64,000 nt of DNA from an uncultured Paraprevotella sp. (GTDB lineage: Bacteria; Bacteroidota; Bacteroidia; Bacteroidales; Bacteroidaceae). The notes under the pieces are model-generated. The model was not told where the DNA came from, ran no database searches, and saw nothing but the letters and a program-made list of their open reading frames with translations. Positions within the stretch are counted from its first letter, which is position 1, and each line of letters starts with the position of its first letter. Positions 42,287 through 48,487 of this stretch are shown piece by piece. The stretch spans positions 42,907 to 106,906 of the forward strand of contig CALULA010000004.1 of assembly GCA_944321365.1 (NCBI GenBank), in the 5' to 3' direction. A program made the translations under genes and the position numbers.

Positions 42287-45200
42287 TCACTTGGTCATCT
42301 TCTGGCCGTCCACGATGTAGATGCCGCGCTGCAGGCCGTCCAGTGCCTCGGCTTTCTTCACGCCGCTCTTCACCTTCACGCCGCTCAGGGTGTAGACGTC
42401 TACGGCTTTTGCGGAATCAGCTGCGCTCTCGCCCAGAACATCCTCAATGGCGGTCACTTCACCGTCGATGTCGATGAGCAGGCGGTTCACCTGTGATGCC
42501 TCATTTCCGCCCTCGACAGTGATATAGGCGCGGAAGCCGTTCAGGGTAACGTTGGCTTCTGCATCTGCCACGTAGAATACGTTGTCGCTGATGAAGTATG
42601 CGCCCTGCGGCACGGTGGTGGCGGAATAGTTACCAGTGATGTATACTTGTCCTACCGCATCGGCATAACCGATGGCCTGTGCCGTCGGAGCTGCTGCCTG
42701 AACCGTCACGCCTTCAACCTTGATTTCGGAAACGTTGCTGTTCACCTGGACGATGTACGGAACGCCTGCCTTCACACCGTCTGATACCGTTTCGGCAGTC
42801 AGAATGACGCTGTTGCCGCTGGTCGATACGCCGGAGAAGCGGCGCACTTCGCTGATGCCGTTGTCCGTGAGCTGTTCAGCCGTCATGTCGAAGGGCACGC
42901 AGAAGGTGTTCCACTTGCCGTCGGCCTTCAGGCTGCGCGTCAGGGTGACGTTGGCGTAGGTGTCGGCAGTCACACTGTAAGCCTGTGTCTCGTTCAAGGT
43001 CAGGTCTACGGCTACGGGAGCCAGTTTGTAGAGTTTCATGTCGTTACAGCCGACCCAGTTGGCATCGTTTCCTTCTTCTGTCTTTATGCCCAGCTGAACG
43101 CTTTCACCCTCATTTGAAGTTACAAGGAAAGCCACCTTATATACATTGTCCAATGTCCGTCCATCGGCGATGGCCTCACCCTTGATGTCACCGGCATATA
43201 TGGAAGCGGCCAATTTGTTTCTGTCGCCGATGTTTGCTCTTGTGCCGAAAGCTTTCAGTGTCATTTCGTAAGATCCTGCCGGGATTTGTACGGTCTGGTA
43301 CAGAACCCACGTGCCAGCTGCGAATTCTGAGTTCTGATAACTTTCATAGAACTGGCTCGGATCCCCGTTGTTGGCGAAATTGTTGCTCCAAGAATTGGTG
43401 CAAGACACCCAACCGAAAGAGGAAACCGTAGCTTTGGGTAGGTCTGTCACGTCCGGAGTGTTTAGCAGGAACGTCATGTCGAACTGCTGGTCACCGGTCG
43501 GGGTGGCTATTCGGGCGTAGGTCTGACGGGCAGTTTCCAGTGTGTTGTAGCACTCTTGCAAGGCTTCCACTGTAGTCAGGGCTTCGTAGCCTTCAGCCGC
43601 ACTGATGGCATCGCTGAGGGCGGTTCTGGCCGTTTCGTCAGCTACTCTGGAGTTGTCCACATAAGCCTGGCATTCCTGCAACAGGGCGGGCAGGGAAGTC
43701 TGGAGTTCGAATGCGGGAGCACATACGGCCATAGCCTCGTTGAGTGCGTTGTATGCCGTGTAATATTCAGCCGTAGTGGTCACCGGTTTTGCCAAAGCCT
43801 CATTCAGCTGAGTGGCAAAAGTCCCGGTCAGTTCGTCCTTGATGGCGTCGGCTTCAGCCTTCAGTGCGTCATACAGTGCTTTGATTTCGGTTGCGCCGTC
43901 GTTGACATAGGTCAGGCGGAAGTTGTCAAATTTGAGCGTTTCTGCGTCTTTTATCCATTCCACACCCATGGTAATCTGTCCGTCGATGACCAATACGTTG
44001 CCTACACTGCTTCTTTGGGCTTCCTTGTTCGCTGCCCATGACGCCAGAATGTCTGCGTCATCCATGGCACCGGTCCACTTGAACAGATAGGTCTGTTTCT
44101 GATAAGAACTTTCCAAGAACACCTGATTGCGGTCGCTTTGCGCGAAGCCAATCTGCACTGACATGGAGTATACACCGTTGGGCACTGCCATGGTCTGTGC
44201 CACGCGCCAGTTCCTTCCACCTTTTCTTACCATGTGTTCCGTCCCGTCTTCATTGGCATAGATGTCGGCGTCGGACAAACCGGTCCAGCCGTTAATCGGC
44301 GTTTCATCCTCAAATCCCGGATTCACTACCAATAATGTTGTGACGTCAAAGTTTGTCACACCCTCGTTCATGCCCGTGTTTGCGGCATAGTAGGTTTTGT
44401 ATGCGGCGGTCAGGATTTCGGCCTGTGCGGTCCATACCGTCTCATCGTCAGAAGCCAGGGCTGTGGCTGTCGCTGTGCTGATGGCACTCTGCAGAGTGGT
44501 CTTGGCGTCCTCTGCGGCTGCGAAAGCGGCCAGAACGGTTTCGGCATACTCTTTCGTGTCGAGGAACGCATCAGCGAACGGTTTCACTTTTGCTTGGGCT
44601 TCCTCTATGTTCACTTCAATCGCGTTGATGGCTGCGACGTATTCTTCTACCGTTGCGGGTGAACCGGAAGCCCCTTCGGTCAGTGCGTCCGTATAAGCCG
44701 TCGGCACTTTACCCTCCAGTTTTGTGGCTAAGGCTGTTGCTTCGGCTACTTTCGCTGTCAGGGCAATGGCATAGGCCGTCACATCGCTGCCGACAGACGT
44801 CAGCTTGACATTGGATATGGCTACCCAGTTGTTGCCGTTGTCGGCAGCAGCCTGCAGACCGATGCGCAGTGTGCCGTCGGTCACTATGCCCGTGGCGCTC
44901 ACTGTGCCCCAGACGTTGGTGGTCACTTGTGCGCGTCCGTCGTTGGCAAAGAGGTACAGGCCGTCCGCGCAGACGTCACCGCCGCCTTGGTTGCGCCCCA
45001 TGGCTACAGCCGTGATGGTGTATACACCGTTGGGCAGGTCTGTGATGTCCTGATAGATGAGGTCGGCATCCTGAGTGGCTCCGCCGGTCCAGAACTCTAT
45101 GCCTATGCCGGAGTAGTCATCGCTGTTCAGGGCTGAGTTGTTGACATTGTAGCTGGCCGAAGCGTTGGCACCGTCTTTTAACCAGCCGTCTCCCCCGGTG

Positions 45201-45406
45201 CAGTCTGCGTTGACGACTTTTGAAGCGGTGATGTCTTCCGATTGTCCGGCCGTTTCGTTTTCCTGTGATGTCGCATCATCAGGAGCGGCCCATGCGGTTG
45301 CGGTGATTCCGGTGGTTTTCTGCGTCGGAGTTGTACCCCAAGCACGCTGTACAGTCATGGTGGATGTGCCCATCAACACCGCCATGAATAGTAGTTTTGT
45401 TTTCAT
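42287..45406 (-). CDS. Large secreted protein: three CBM-like beta-sandwich repeats with helical linkers and a T9SS-type C-terminal domain
   Basis: Signal peptide; repeats YQDITDLPNGVY / AQTMAVPNGVY / YQTVQIPAGSY; WNTFCVPF domain; terminal TAIEDV...VYTLSGVKV...RGIYIVDGQK. Confidence 0.85.
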   Translation of the reverse strand: MKTKLLFMAVLMGTSTMTVQRAWGTTPTQKTTGITATAWAAPDDATSQENETAGQSEDITASKVVNADCTGGDGWLKDGANASASYNVNNSALNSDDYSGIGIEFWTGGATQDADLIYQDITDLPNGVYTITAVAMGRNQGGGDVCADGLYLFANDGRAQVTTNVWGTVSATGIVTDGTLRIGLQAAADNGNNWVAISNVKLTSVGSDVTAYAIALTAKVAEATALATKLEGKVPTAYTDALTEGASGSPATVEEYVAAINAIEVNIEEAQAKVKPFADAFLDTKEYAETVLAAFAAAEDAKTTLQSAISTATATALASDDETVWTAQAEILTAAYKTYYAANTGMNEGVTNFDVTTLLVVNPGFEDETPINGWTGLSDADIYANEDGTEHMVRKGGRNWRVAQTMAVPNGVYSMSVQIGFAQSDRNQVFLESSYQKQTYLFKWTGAMDDADILASWAANKEAQRSSVGNVLVIDGQITMGVEWIKDAETLKFDNFRLTYVNDGATEIKALYDALKAEADAIKDELTGTFATQLNEALAKPVTTTAEYYTAYNALNEAMAVCAPAFELQTSLPALLQECQAYVDNSRVADETARTALSDAISAAEGYEALTTVEALQECYNTLETARQTYARIATPTGDQQFDMTFLLNTPDVTDLPKATVSSFGWVSCTNSWSNNFANNGDPSQFYESYQNSEFAAGTWVLYQTVQIPAGSYEMTLKAFGTRANIGDRNKLAASIYAGDIKGEAIADGRTLDNVYKVAFLVTSNEGESVQLGIKTEEGNDANWVGCNDMKLYKLAPVAVDLTLNETQAYSVTADTYANVTLTRSLKADGKWNTFCVPFDMTAEQLTDNGISEVRRFSGVSTSGNSVILTAETVSDGVKAGVPYIVQVNSNVSEIKVEGVTVQAAAPTAQAIGYADAVGQVYITGNYSATTVPQGAYFISDNVFYVADAEANVTLNGFRAYITVEGGNEASQVNRLLIDIDGEVTAIEDVLGESAADSAKAVDVYTLSGVKVKSGVKKAEALDGLQRGIYIVDGQKMTK

Positions 45407-45553: not shown

Positions 45554-45765
45554 TCTCTTCGGAAGAGATACATCGAATGCACTATTGAGTGTATCTTTCG
45601 CAGCAAATATAGGATTTTCACAGAAAATATCCAACAGATTTCCGCCTTTTTTTAAAAAAAGTTTAGAAAACGGACGTCGTATGAGCAGATGTTCTCTGTT
45701 TGTTTCCTTGTAATCAACGGCTTGACGTCTGTTGTAAGGTTCGCGATGTATCTTTTCCGAAGAGA
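45554..45765. promoter_or_regulatory. Candidate invertible promoter 1 (ON toward the large T9SS-type gene)
   Basis: 22-bp inverted repeats with 21/22 identity (45554-45575, 45744-45765) enclose a minus-strand TTG-N20-TATATTTG promoter (-7 at 45604-45611). Confidence 0.7.
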
Positions 45766-45890
45766 AAGACAGACGTAAGGCATGTTGTATATCTTGATGG
45801 TTCTGTATTTGTGAGTTACTTTTCTTAGGGTTATATCACTCATTGCAGGGTGCTTCTTTGGGGAATGCTTATTCCATGGGTGTTTTTTTG

Positions 45891-45942
45891 TTGCGCAAAA
45901 CGTTCTGACGGTTTGTGCAAGCCATGCGGACATGTTGCGTCC
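45891..45942. repeat. 22-bp-period palindrome array (locus F)
   Basis: Cores at 45891 ttgcgcaa, 45913 ttgtgcaa, 45935 ttgcgtcc; extra atgcggac at 45924. Confidence 0.65.
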
Positions 45943-46128
45943 GATTGTTTCTTATGTGGGTTGTGGTGGTGGATTGTGAGAAGTACGGTGTACAGGTGTG
46001 TCTTGTTGTGGAGCTGGCCATAGTGCGGAGACAAGAAAATCGGAGGCTTGATTTTGTTTGAAAATGACCGGCAAAAAGTGGAGTGAAGTTGTAATAAGTG
46101 CTGAAAAAGAATGAGAAAAATCGTAGAA

Positions 46129-46298
46129 CTCTTAGTAAGAGATATATTTCTCTCTGCAAATATAGTGAATACGACAGTCTTTTCCAATCTTTTTGTTACA
46201 TATTTAAACAAATACGAGTGTAGGGCATCTGCTTATGTTGTTGATATACAATAGCCTGTTAAGGCTGGCCTTTGTTGCGGTATATCTCTTACTAAGAG
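46129..46298. promoter_or_regulatory. Candidate invertible promoter 2 (OFF relative to the 46328 lipoprotein gene)
   Basis: Perfect 18-bp inverted repeats (46129-46146, 46281-46298) enclose a minus-strand TTG-N20-TATATTTG promoter (-7 at 46157-46164). Confidence 0.78.
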
Positions 46299-46327: not shown

Positions 46328-47290
46328 ATGAATCCAATGTGGTCTATGAAGAAACGAGTTGACAGTTGGCTTTGTGTCAGTATATATATAATAGGTATAG
46401 TGGGAACTGTTATGATTTCTTGTAATGGCAGTGGACGCCGTAAGGTGGAAGGCCGTCGGGCGATGTGCACTCCGTTGTTGGGCAAACAAGGGATGGATTG
46501 TCCGGTGGCGGAAGTGGCTTCTCCTGCCGGACAGGTCTCTTTGTTCCGATTTCACGAAGGGCGACTGGTCGGAGGATACAGTACCGACTATGGTGTGCTG
46601 ACTATTGATGTCAGGCCATTGGAGATGGAGGTGGAGGAGCGGACGGCGGGTTCCGTCCGTATGGCATCGGGGCATGCGGTGTATAGGCATATACGTATGA
46701 CGCAGGAGGGGTATGTTACCGCCATGAGCTTCAGGCAGCGGCATACAACCACGGCCGGGACTGGCTATGTGCGCAGCGGTTATGTCCATGCGTCGTATAC
46801 TTCGGAGGGGCAGATAAGTCGTTTGCAGTATGTGTATGACGACAGTCGCGGATTTCGTGCTAAAAACAGCATGAAGTATAGCTGGAAAGATGGCGATTTG
46901 CAGTACGTGGTGTCGGATTTCTTCCACTCGGATGATTTGTATGAAAAGCACTATATGATTTCTTTTGTCTATAGTGAGCCTGATACGCTCCTCCCCAACA
47001 GCGGCATCTACTGGGAGCAGATGATGCCGCCGTCTGGCGTGCTGCATGATTTCATGTGGTATGGCGGGATGCTGGGAAAGCCCACCGCGCATGTTCCGGT
47101 GCGGGTGCGCCGCGAGACGGTGGGCGACGGGACGCATCACAGCGAGCAGTGGGACATCCGTACAGAGCGTGATGACCATGGGCGTGTGTGCGCTGTTTAC
47201 TACGGCGACCGTCTGTACCGCAGGTATGCCTATGACCGGACGGGCTGTCCGGACAACGTGGCGGAGGATGGTCCGGGCGGTGCGGAATAA
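46328..47290 (+). CDS. Lipoprotein, DUF4595-like (paralog of 16066-17172)
   Basis: MISC lipobox; YSWKDGDL, PNSGIYW, WYGGMLGKPTAHVP; start could be at 46346. Confidence 0.72.
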   Translation: MNPMWSMKKRVDSWLCVSIYIIGIVGTVMISCNGSGRRKVEGRRAMCTPLLGKQGMDCPVAEVASPAGQVSLFRFHEGRLVGGYSTDYGVLTIDVRPLEMEVEERTAGSVRMASGHAVYRHIRMTQEGYVTAMSFRQRHTTTAGTGYVRSGYVHASYTSEGQISRLQYVYDDSRGFRAKNSMKYSWKDGDLQYVVSDFFHSDDLYEKHYMISFVYSEPDTLLPNSGIYWEQMMPPSGVLHDFMWYGGMLGKPTAHVPVRVRRETVGDGTHHSEQWDIRTERDDHGRVCAVYYGDRLYRRYAYDRTGCPDNVAEDGPGGAE

Positions 47291-47397: not shown

Positions 47398-47491
47398 ACA
47401 AAAGAAATGCGGGCCGCTTCCCAGCGACCCGCATTCTTTAGTTTTTTAGGTATTAGTTTTGTTTAAGGTAAAAAGATTGTTTTCAGGATAA
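47398..47491 (-). ncRNA. Candidate ~95-nt sRNA
   Basis: TTG-N20-TATCTTTG promoter (-7 at 47497-47504), AU-rich body, 13-bp GGGA-tetraloop terminator 47406-47435 with UCUUUU tail. Confidence 0.55.
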
Positions 47492-47587
47492 CGATGCAAA
47501 GATAAGCCCAATTTTATGGGCATGCAAGTAATTAATTATGCTTTATAGCATGTTTTGTATAAAACCTTGCATTTTCCTTAAATTTCC

Positions 47588-48487
47588 TTATCCGATTCCG
47601 TCTTTCTGTTCTTCCGTCAGGTGAAAACGGGTGATCTCCTGTATGGGTTCCTGCAGGATGTGTCCGATGTCGTAACCGGCTGCATATACTGCTGCAGACA
47701 GTTCGTCACGGAAGTGCCATGCGATGCTTCCCACGAAATGGATGGGAAGGTGCCCCGGAGCGTAGGGGGCTACATTTCGTTGCAAAAAGCTGTTAAAACA
47801 GTCGTACAACAGCGTATGTAGAGCAGGGTGTGTGCGGTGTTCATACACGAACGGAGCCAGTGAGGCCAGGAAGCGGTTGGCTTCCGGCTCACGGTATACC
47901 CGGCGGATGATGTCGGCTTCGCTGAGGCCGAACGTCTCGTGGAACTGCCGGCGGATCTCGTCAGGCAGAAGTCCTTTCAGGACATCAGCCACCAGCCGTT
48001 TGCCTATGGCCGTACCACTGCCTTCGTCTCCCAGAATGTAGCCCAGCGGCGGAGTCTGCTGTATGATGCTTTTGCCGTCATAGCGGCAGGAGTTGGATCC
48101 GGTGCCCAATATGCAGGCAATGCCGGGGGTGTGCCCACAGAGGGCGCGGGCCGCTCCCAACAGATCGGAGTCTGCTGATACATCAGCCAGTCCCATGGTC
48201 TGCCGGAGCAGATCTGCCATGCGCTGTCTCACGAAAGGCAGGCATCCTGCGCCATAATAAAATAAGGTAATGGCAGAGTCTTTATCCGGCAGTAAGGCTT
48301 TCAGTTGTGGACTTACCTCTGTCTGCAATATGGCAGTCAGGGTGGCATCGTCTTGCAGGGCCGGGTTCATGCCGCGACTGACAAACGTATGTTGCTGCCC
48401 TCCGGAGAGGGTCAGTTGCCAGGCGGTTTTGGTGGACCCGCCGTCGGCTACCAGCAAATGTACGAGGTTATGATGTTGCATTTTCAT
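47588..48487 (-). CDS. BadF/BcrA-family ASKHA sugar kinase (GlcNAc/MurNAc kinase-like)
   Basis: ADGGSTKT, GMNP, YYGAGC, ILGTGSNS, LGDEGSG, VGSIA. Confidence 0.85.
   Translation of the reverse strand: MKMQHHNLVHLLVADGGSTKTAWQLTLSGGQQHTFVSRGMNPALQDDATLTAILQTEVSPQLKALLPDKDSAITLFYYGAGCLPFVRQRMADLLRQTMGLADVSADSDLLGAARALCGHTPGIACILGTGSNSCRYDGKSIIQQTPPLGYILGDEGSGTAIGKRLVADVLKGLLPDEIRRQFHETFGLSEADIIRRVYREPEANRFLASLAPFVYEHRTHPALHTLLYDCFNSFLQRNVAPYAPGHLPIHFVGSIAWHFRDELSAAVYAAGYDIGHILQEPIQEITRFHLTEEQKDGIG

Follow-up and report, generated by a model that had tools for sequence, protein, structure and literature searches.

The interval 45554-46298 of a 64,000-nucleotide stretch of the genome of an uncultured Paraprevotella sp. 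(contig CALULA010000004.1 of assembly GCA_944321365.1; this whole 64-kb stretch is hereafter called the window, and its numbering is used for all coordinates without a contig label) contains two short DNA segments, each bounded by inverted repeats and each carrying a predicted promoter, and both segments invert exactly at the proposed repeat arms, as seen in contigs of gut metagenomes. The explanation that best accounts for these observations, to which we assign a probability of about 0.85, is that they are two separate invertons (here called switch 1 and switch 2), which lie back to back between divergent genes for secreted or surface proteins and are flipped by a tyrosine recombinase encoded elsewhere in the genome. 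Every testable defining feature of Bacteroidales invertons is present: a repeat-bounded segment, an inner promoter, the occurrence of both orientations and, elsewhere in the genome, a candidate tyrosine recombinase. What is particular to this locus is the divergent back-to-back layout together with an orphan enzyme that is conserved in the genus.

Repeat arms, promoters and predicted output

An inverted-repeat search of the interval returned two pairs of arms. Those of switch 1 (pair I1), L1 at 45554-45575 and R1 at 45744-45765, are 22 nt long, complementary at 21 of 22 positions (95%) and separated by 168 nt; those of switch 2 (pair I3), L2 at 46129-46146 and R2 at 46281-46298, are 18 nt long, perfectly complementary (18/18, 100%) and separated by 134 nt. 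When the 64 kb were searched with CTCTTNNNAAGAGATA at no more than one mismatch, the four arms were the only matches, compared with 0.10 matches expected from shuffled sequences, and none of the 100 shuffles reached four. Every arm is a 6-3-6 palindrome, TCTCTT-N3-AAGAGA, whose 15 bp form the conserved unit, and an arm gains a direction only from its flanks and from its central trinucleotide, which is CGG for pair 1 and AGT for pair 2. The letters of the arms read TCTCTTCGGAAGAGATACATCG and CTCTTAGTAAGAGATATA, with TCTCTT-CGG-AAGAGA-TACATCG at L1 and CTCTT-AGT-AAGAGA-TATA at L2; the single mismatch of pair 1 results from a T at position 45754 of R1 in the strain of the window (AAAAGA for AAGAGA). 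The initial annotation of this DNA, made from the sequence alone, had described four related sites in two inverted pairs with these same cores, and both the repeat search and a check of the sequence bear this out; its consensus core nGn, on the other hand, is not general, since the cores GGA, AAG, CGT, ATG, AAT and CGC occur at other switches in the genome.

The arms enclose invertible segments of 168 bp (45576-45743, minus strand) and 134 bp (46147-46280, minus strand), and a spacer of 363 bp (45766-46128) lies between the two switches. In agreement with the one left-pointing promoter that had been annotated inside each pair, a pattern scan found a single Bacteroides-type promoter (-33 TTTG/TTG, -7 TAnnTTTG) in each segment. 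P1 of switch 1 occupies 45604-45634 on the minus strand and consists of TTG (45634-45632), N20 and TATATTTG (45611-45604), and P2 of switch 2 (46157-46187, minus strand) has the same TTG-N20-TATATTTG form; both point left. The looser pattern TTG-N18-22-TAnnTTTG has a density of 0.135 per kb genome-wide, and the scan detected no consensus promoter in the spacer. The spacer holds a weak plus-strand terminator-like hairpin with a T-rich tail (45927-45943), which is overlapped by a short TTGCGCAA-like array with a 22-bp period (45891-45942), and an Rfam search of the locus gave no match in either switch or in the spacer. Two open reading frames (ORFs) of 93 and 47 amino acids (aa), placed over the switches by gene callers, were judged to be spurious because both straddle repeat arms.

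Since P1 faces the gene for a 1039-aa protein on the left, the orientation found in the window is predicted to be ON for that gene, and since P2 faces away from a putative lipoprotein gene on the right, it is predicted to be OFF for the latter. Transcription from P1 would start about 10 nt inside L1, and the transcript would cross this arm on its way to the ATG at 45406, which is 147 nt from the outer end of L1. P2 points into the spacer, and its transcript would have to pass three repeat arms before reaching the left gene; in Bacteroides fragilis, the amount of transcript falls as the repeats between promoter and gene increase in number (PMC4747536). A flip of switch 2 would place P2 just inside R2, the outer end of which is 47 nt from the ATG at 46346, and would turn the right gene ON, and a flip of switch 1 would turn P1 into the spacer, toward the hairpin, and the left gene OFF. 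With independent flipping of the two segments, up to four expression states could arise within a clonal population.

Inversion in gut metagenomes

Twelve chicken and bird gut metagenome runs (X1-X6, X9-X12, X15 and X16) were aligned to the window as assembler contigs; this mapping of orientations, which the initial annotation had proposed, yielded inverted junctions for both switches. The sequences of X1-X4 do not differ from that of the window. Both arms of switch 2 coincide with contig breaks in X1 and X3, where 42-nt unitigs carry both inverted junctions; X2 has one of the two, and X4 has the reference form only. The depths of the inverted versus the reference form of switch 2 are 10.2 versus 15.7 and 9.5 versus 10.7 in X1, and 6.7 versus 20.8 and 6.1 versus 14 in X3, and the inverted form makes up about 25-40% of the depth in X1-X3, with no other sequence difference over 1.9 kb. 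The sequence CCGCAACAAAGG, which follows 46146 in unitigs of X1, X3 and X9, is the reverse complement of 46269-46280, and the loose end TGCAGAGAGAAA before 46281 is the reverse complement of 46147-46158.

Switch 1 is inverted in other samples. X5 and X9, which represent another strain, contain both inverted switch 1 junctions together with that strain's own single-nucleotide polymorphisms (SNPs) in the flanks, reading CGAACCTT after 45575 and TCAGTCTT or TCAGTATT before 45554, and X9 varies at switch 2 as well. In X6, a single contig of 4601 nt (depth 20.5) has 45565-45743 on the strand opposite to both flanks, with its inversion joint in L1 and switch 2 in the reference orientation. Contigs also break at L1 in X5, X9 and X11, the last of which breaks at the arms of both switches, and X15 has one inverted switch 1 junction. 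The orientation of the window was found in X10, X12 and X16 and in three further assemblies that carry the lipoprotein gene. Switch 2 is thus mixed in five samples (X1, X2, X3, X9 and X11), and switch 1 is mixed in four and fully inverted in a fifth (X6). All five predicted junction strings are identical, letter for letter, to those observed, strain SNPs included, as verified by a script.

Since X1-X3 are mixed at switch 2 only and X6 is inverted at switch 1 only, on one contig, the two switches flip independently, which supports the two independent invertible promoters that had been proposed from the sequence. Three of the four orientation states were seen, i.e., (left, left), (left, right) and (right, left), and none of the 12 runs contains a cross-pair junction of the L1xR2 or L1xL2 type.

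The behavior of the two switches can be viewed in light of the central trinucleotide. In other species, the N3 cores of a pair are exact reverse complements in 111 of 123 pairs, the chance of a match being 1 in 64, and 26 of the 32 possible core classes are represented among the switches; matched but otherwise free cores fit a strand-exchange region that must agree between partners. That the unlike cores CGG and AGT would block pairing between the two switches is mechanistically reasonable and fits the lack of cross products. Distinct cores as a design rule were considered and rejected: all eight or nine cores of this genome differ, which has a chance of about 0.3, and cores are reused both in another genome (G081), where CGT occurs twice, and in Phocaeicola massiliensis.

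The mismatch in R1 may bear on how readily switch 1 flips. Position 45754, at which T breaks the palindrome in the window strain, is C in X5, X9, X10 and X12, giving a perfect 22/22 repeat. Switch 1 varies in none of the four samples with T (all from one study, with switch 2 mixed in three of them) and in five of the eight other samples, although the allele at 45754 was directly read in only four of these eight. These counts are suggestive only, and we regard T at 45754 as a natural lock on switch 1 as a lead, not a result.

Repeat class and candidate recombinase

A genome-wide scan for the motif, likewise proposed with the initial annotation, led to about eight switches of the TCTCTT-N3-AAGAGA class and to a candidate family of tyrosine recombinases. 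The assembly (2.74 Mb in 28 contigs, rated 99.93% complete; contigs are designated C followed by a number) contains 13 exact TCTCTTN3AAGAGA sites and none of the reversed control pattern. Complete pairs beyond the two of the window are located at C5:54791/54975 and C5:100735/100941, and four of the switches lie at contig breaks, with sites at the start of C1 and the end of C16 (core CGT), the end of C13 and the start of C25 (ATG), the start of C19 (AAT) and the end of C21 (CGC). Breaks at these sites are expected, because an assembler meets both orientations there. The leftover segment at the start of C25 carries a promoter nearly identical to P1 (GAAAATCCATATATTTGC), which faces a gene for a 938-aa DUF5013 paralogue of the left gene product. 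Other switches of the class neighbor a gene for an M6 metalloprotease with BACON and choice-of-anchor J domains, genes for a PD40 propeller and then an outer membrane protein (OMP) beta-barrel, an operon for an LpoB/CsgG-like lipoprotein and a DUF6175 protein, and a gene for a hybrid two-component regulator, all of which are customary cargo of Bacteroidales phase variation.

The switch C5:100735-100941 is without obvious cargo; in one orientation it faces the 3' end of a convergent gene, and in the other a hairpin and an antisense tRNA that precede asnA, a gene with a promoter of its own. Neither of two solitary sites, C2:235532-235547 and C12:15905-15923, has a partner nearby. Both have the core GGG, and the C12 site falls inside a 545-aa ORF; the two could be relics or partners in a long-range inversion. 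Two switch-plus-cargo pairs, C5:54953-58686 (the LpoB/CsgG-like and DUF6175 operon) and C1:848-4126 (the hybrid regulator), recur in Paraprevotella at about 68-71% nucleotide identity, and these pairings therefore appear to be older than the species split.

As had been noted from the sequence alone, no recombinase is encoded in the 64-kb window: in a profile search, all five Phage_integrase matches of the genome lie on other contigs. Two of these five tyrosine recombinases are XerC and XerD, which score above the equivalog cut-offs, and the one on C3 is truncated by the contig edge. The other two share the same architecture of Arm-DNA-bind_5, Phage_int_SAM_5 and Phage_integrase domains and are 43% identical. 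The first, a 401-aa protein (C14:3330-4532), is an orphan that lies between ordinary genes with neither repeat nor tRNA nearby. The second has 405 aa (C7:512-1735). Within C7:512-1976, a 209-bp element of a second inverton class, with a 25-nt repeat (TTGTTGTATATTATGAAGCGACGGA) and a TAcaTTTG promoter inside, lies 29 bp past this second recombinase, and the same pairing of recombinase and inverton is found in a same-genus relative.

In other species, the TCTCTT-N3-AAGAGA class is linked to the family of the C14 recombinase. At least nine cases were found in other species of the taxonomic family in which the gene for a protein with 45-58% identity to C14 stops 21-44 bp short of an inverton of this class (about 190-225 bp). 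A scan of named genomes, one per species, for two palindromes 150-180 bp apart gave at least 120 loci; among the loci listed, a C14-like gene (mostly 48-66% identical) is present in 31 within the fetched stretch of up to 8 kb, and in 23 its 3' end is no more than 150 bp from a site, the distances being 20-80 bp. In a phylogenetic tree, C14 and three same-genus orthologues (62-71% identical), all of them orphans, form one clade (100/100), C7 and relatives tied to the TATGAAGCG-type repeat form another (100/100), a third same-genus clade is tied to a TCTCC variant, and the recombinases linked to TCTCTT sites are scattered over an unresolved backbone.

From these associations, C14 is probably the invertase that acts in trans on all switches of the class in this genome. 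By virtue of its Arm-binding, SAM-like and catalytic domains, the tyrosine recombinase would bind the palindromes and pair both arms of one switch, and strand exchange in or around the asymmetric N3 core, where we infer the crossover to take place, would reverse the segment; the enzyme encoded elsewhere, most likely the C14 orphan, would serve all eight or so switches. A more far-reaching proposal, which we put forward tentatively and consider doubtful in its entirety, is that one orphan master tyrosine invertase, conserved in the genus and with no home switch, runs all TCTCTT-N3-AAGAGA switches of the genome, that N3 serves as a heterospecific spacer as in lox variants, and that T at 45754 slows switch 1 or locks it ON. 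If this were true, the free N3 would let switches 363 bp apart flip independently, with the spacer never inverted or deleted.

It is unlikely that the switches are flipped by C7, or by C7 and C14 redundantly, rather than by C14 alone. In favor of such a role, C7 is a paralogue of like architecture, two Tsr proteins of Phocaeicola vulgatus are redundant on two promoters (PMC12940148), and the GCGAC found in the C7 repeat also flanks several TCTCTT-N3-AAGAGA sites. However, the C7 clade is linked in cis to a different repeat (of the TATAWTATGAAGCG type) in two genomes, the recombinases adjoining TCTCTT-N3-AAGAGA invertons that were placed on the tree all fall outside this clade, and most of them are closer to C14 than C7 is (45-58% versus 43%).

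Beyond the identity of the enzyme, three explanations compete with two phase-variable invertons flipped by a tyrosine recombinase. The first, that old inversions left co-existing strains with different but fixed orientations and that phase variation is not ongoing, has a very low probability: the evidence is all metagenomic, X6 has only the inverted form of switch 1, and the samples differ in SNP alleles, but in X1-X3 both orientations of switch 2 coexist at 25-40% in otherwise identical sequence, the junctions found in several independent studies are exactly the same at both switches, the assembly of this genome was also interrupted at four other switches of the class, and inverted-repeat-bounded promoters of this kind flip in cultured Bacteroides (PMC4611039; PMC4747536; bioRxiv 10.1101/521070).

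The second is a global serine invertase of the Mpi type, as at the capsule promoters of B. fragilis, and is less probable still, as the Resolvase family (PF00239) has no match in the whole genome in a search that was positive in 12 of 14 control genomes. The repeat consensus of Mpi is different as well, and what we take to be that consensus is not contained in the arms. The likeness that remains is that Mpi, one enzyme, acts in trans on many dispersed surface-molecule switches, as proposed here for C14, and that the palindromic core and the many dispersed switches with no adjacent recombinase recall the Mpi regulon (PMC4747536). The third, that the palindromes are transcription factor sites or RNA hairpins in DNA that is not rearranged, is refuted as the sole explanation by the inversion junctions directly observed in contigs; each arm is operator-like in being a perfect 6-3-6 palindrome, and repeats between promoter and gene do reduce transcription in B. 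fragilis (PMC4747536), but an operator would have no need of the core agreement seen in 111 of 123 pairs, in which the cores are reverse complements, and the hairpin may have an additional role as an attenuator.

Several points weigh against two independent invertons served by C14 in trans: (i) the activity of the promoters and the ON/OFF effects are predicted from motif and geometry, and run X15, labelled RNA, shows a flat, DNA-like depth; (ii) contigs, not raw reads, were aligned, in which minority orientations under about 10% are invisible; (iii) of the up to four surface states named in the initial annotation, three stand as orientation states and the fourth, with both segments flipped on one molecule, was not seen in the contigs; (iv) two switches of Phocaeicola massiliensis that are 1.4 kb apart both have the core AGT/ACT; (v) with the genome in 28 contigs, another recombinase could be missing, and the C3 copy is a fragment; (vi) the specificity of C14 is assigned by association and elimination, on a tree whose backbone is unresolved, and across 151 genomes of the family the presence or absence of C14 does not follow motif counts cleanly, paralogues of about 55% identity being found everywhere, and 17 sites are present even in one genome of the genus that has no close C14 orthologue.

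Related systems and flanking genes

Promoter inversion by tyrosine recombinases is well known from E. coli fimS, a short invertible segment that is acted on by FimB and FimE and whose promoter turns surface expression ON or OFF. It differs from the locus described here in being a single switch with 9-bp repeats, with short enzymes of the FimB/E type encoded alongside and with another type of promoter. Closer parallels exist in Bacteroidales. In the BT1927-type S-layer/OmpA invertons of B. thetaiotaomicron, a promoter is located on a segment of about 250-300 bp between short palindromic inverted repeats, there are eight loci in one genome with repeats that differ only in the central trinucleotide, tyrosine recombinases are involved, and mutation of one half-site locks the switch (PMC4611039; bioRxiv 10.1101/521070). 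These invertons and Tsr26/BF4087 of B. fragilis resemble the present locus in their palindromic arms, surface lipoprotein/OMP cargo and tyrosine recombinases, but their 17-nt repeat, GTTAC-N7-GTAAC (PMC4611039), is absent from the arms here, and the recombinase adjoins the switch at BT1927 itself, as it does at seven of the eight loci, whereas the locus of the window has shorter segments (134-168 bp) and an orphan as its candidate enzyme.

Control of more than one promoter by one enzyme has precedents as well. With Tsr19/BF2766 in B. fragilis (PMC4747536) and BVU2677/BVU2684 in P. vulgatus (PMC12940148), one tyrosine recombinase flips a local and a distant promoter, and combinations of the two switches give distinct phenotypes. 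The repeat of the Tsr19/BF2766 type, TACTTNNNANGTAANNGAA (PMC12940148), is absent from both arms here, and its promoters are far apart, with the recombinase next to a "home" switch, whereas the switches of the window are back to back. IP-ARG-2 (Yan, Hall & Jiang 2022, PMC8748976) likewise has two adjacent invertible promoters with similar repeats and one invertase that is thought to be shared; however, both of its regions are downstream of the invertase and face one operon (resistance/glycan genes on an integrative and conjugative element), and the switches here are located between divergent genes with no invertase near.

The repeat class is widespread. The scan of named genomes found it in Phocaeicola massiliensis, P. 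sartorii, Paraprevotella clara, P. xylaniphila, Bacteroides stercorirosoris and Alistipes timonensis, and also in Muribaculaceae, Odoribacter, Parabacteroides and Ignavibacteria. The motif was not found in the accessible portion of the supplements of PMC11892184, and other papers give different motifs; the class has likely been catalogued already by PhaseFinder surveys, since cultured species of Phocaeicola, Paraprevotella, Bacteroides and Alistipes carry it. Five invertons of the class in other species have a third repeat copy with the same core 20-180 bp beyond one arm, an arrangement reminiscent of the multi-repeat IVp-I region of B. fragilis, in which expression is tuned by how many repeats are present. 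Six loci of the class, some with a Bacteroidales-type recombinase, are on contigs of metagenome-assembled genomes (MAGs) labelled Oscillospiraceae, Lachnospiraceae, Eggerthellaceae, Micrarchaeota, Acetatifactor and Clostridia, and are most likely mis-binned contigs of Bacteroidales.

The current understanding of phase variation in Bacteroidales is unchanged by these results. They define a phase-variable surface regulon of about eight loci in a chicken-gut member of the Bacteroidaceae with its best nucleotide matches in Paraprevotella, name its probable invertase, and tie a widespread repeat class, TCTCTT-N3-AAGAGA, to one protein clade that is known in databases only as "site-specific integrase," a link that should make invertons and invertases easier to annotate in MAGs. 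As a compact, naturally occurring switch with four states, the back-to-back pair could serve to test whether N3 sets the choice of partner.

The two cargo genes diverge from the switch pair. The left gene (42287-45406, minus strand) encodes the 1039-aa protein, which is secreted and has a signal peptide and DUF5013 repeats (Pfam DUF5013, E 3e-8); it has no match in NCBIfam and no sorting-domain match (TIGR04183 or PF18962) at E<=0.01. Its C terminus resembles a sorting tail of the type IX secretion system (T9SS), below threshold. Over the last 210 aa, the protein shares 29% identity with the 938-aa DUF5013 protein encoded on C25, a paralogue that has a weak TIGR04183 match (E 0.009) and is located behind another TCTCTT-N3-AAGAGA switch. 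The tails of the two proteins align, and the earlier "T9SS-type" label is only sub-threshold. The right gene (46346-47290, plus strand), which starts 47 nt downstream of R2, encodes a 314-aa putative lipoprotein with a lipobox-like VMISC and a weak DUF4595 match (E 2.3e-4; 21.6 bits, under the 34.2-bit cut-off). The start at 46346 was chosen by the gene callers in three other assemblies, and 46328 is an alternative. A sequence search of the PDB gave no relative for either protein.

Two minor observations were made in and beside these genes. In the single X6 contig, 375 nt within the gene for the 1039-aa protein (43930-44306) are swapped for 375 unrelated letters, and this replacement is an allelic cassette in a switch-controlled protein. 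Downstream of the lipoprotein gene, 47404-47604 on the minus strand gives a full-length match to Rfam RF04184, the Bacteroides small RNA BTnc060 (99.6 bits, E 4.9e-16, below the gathering score of 228.9). In four metagenomes, the core of this region (47437-47505) reaches 10-20 times the depth of the flanking sequence and shows many different loose ends, and its sequence is therefore taken to be conserved across many co-resident Bacteroidales.

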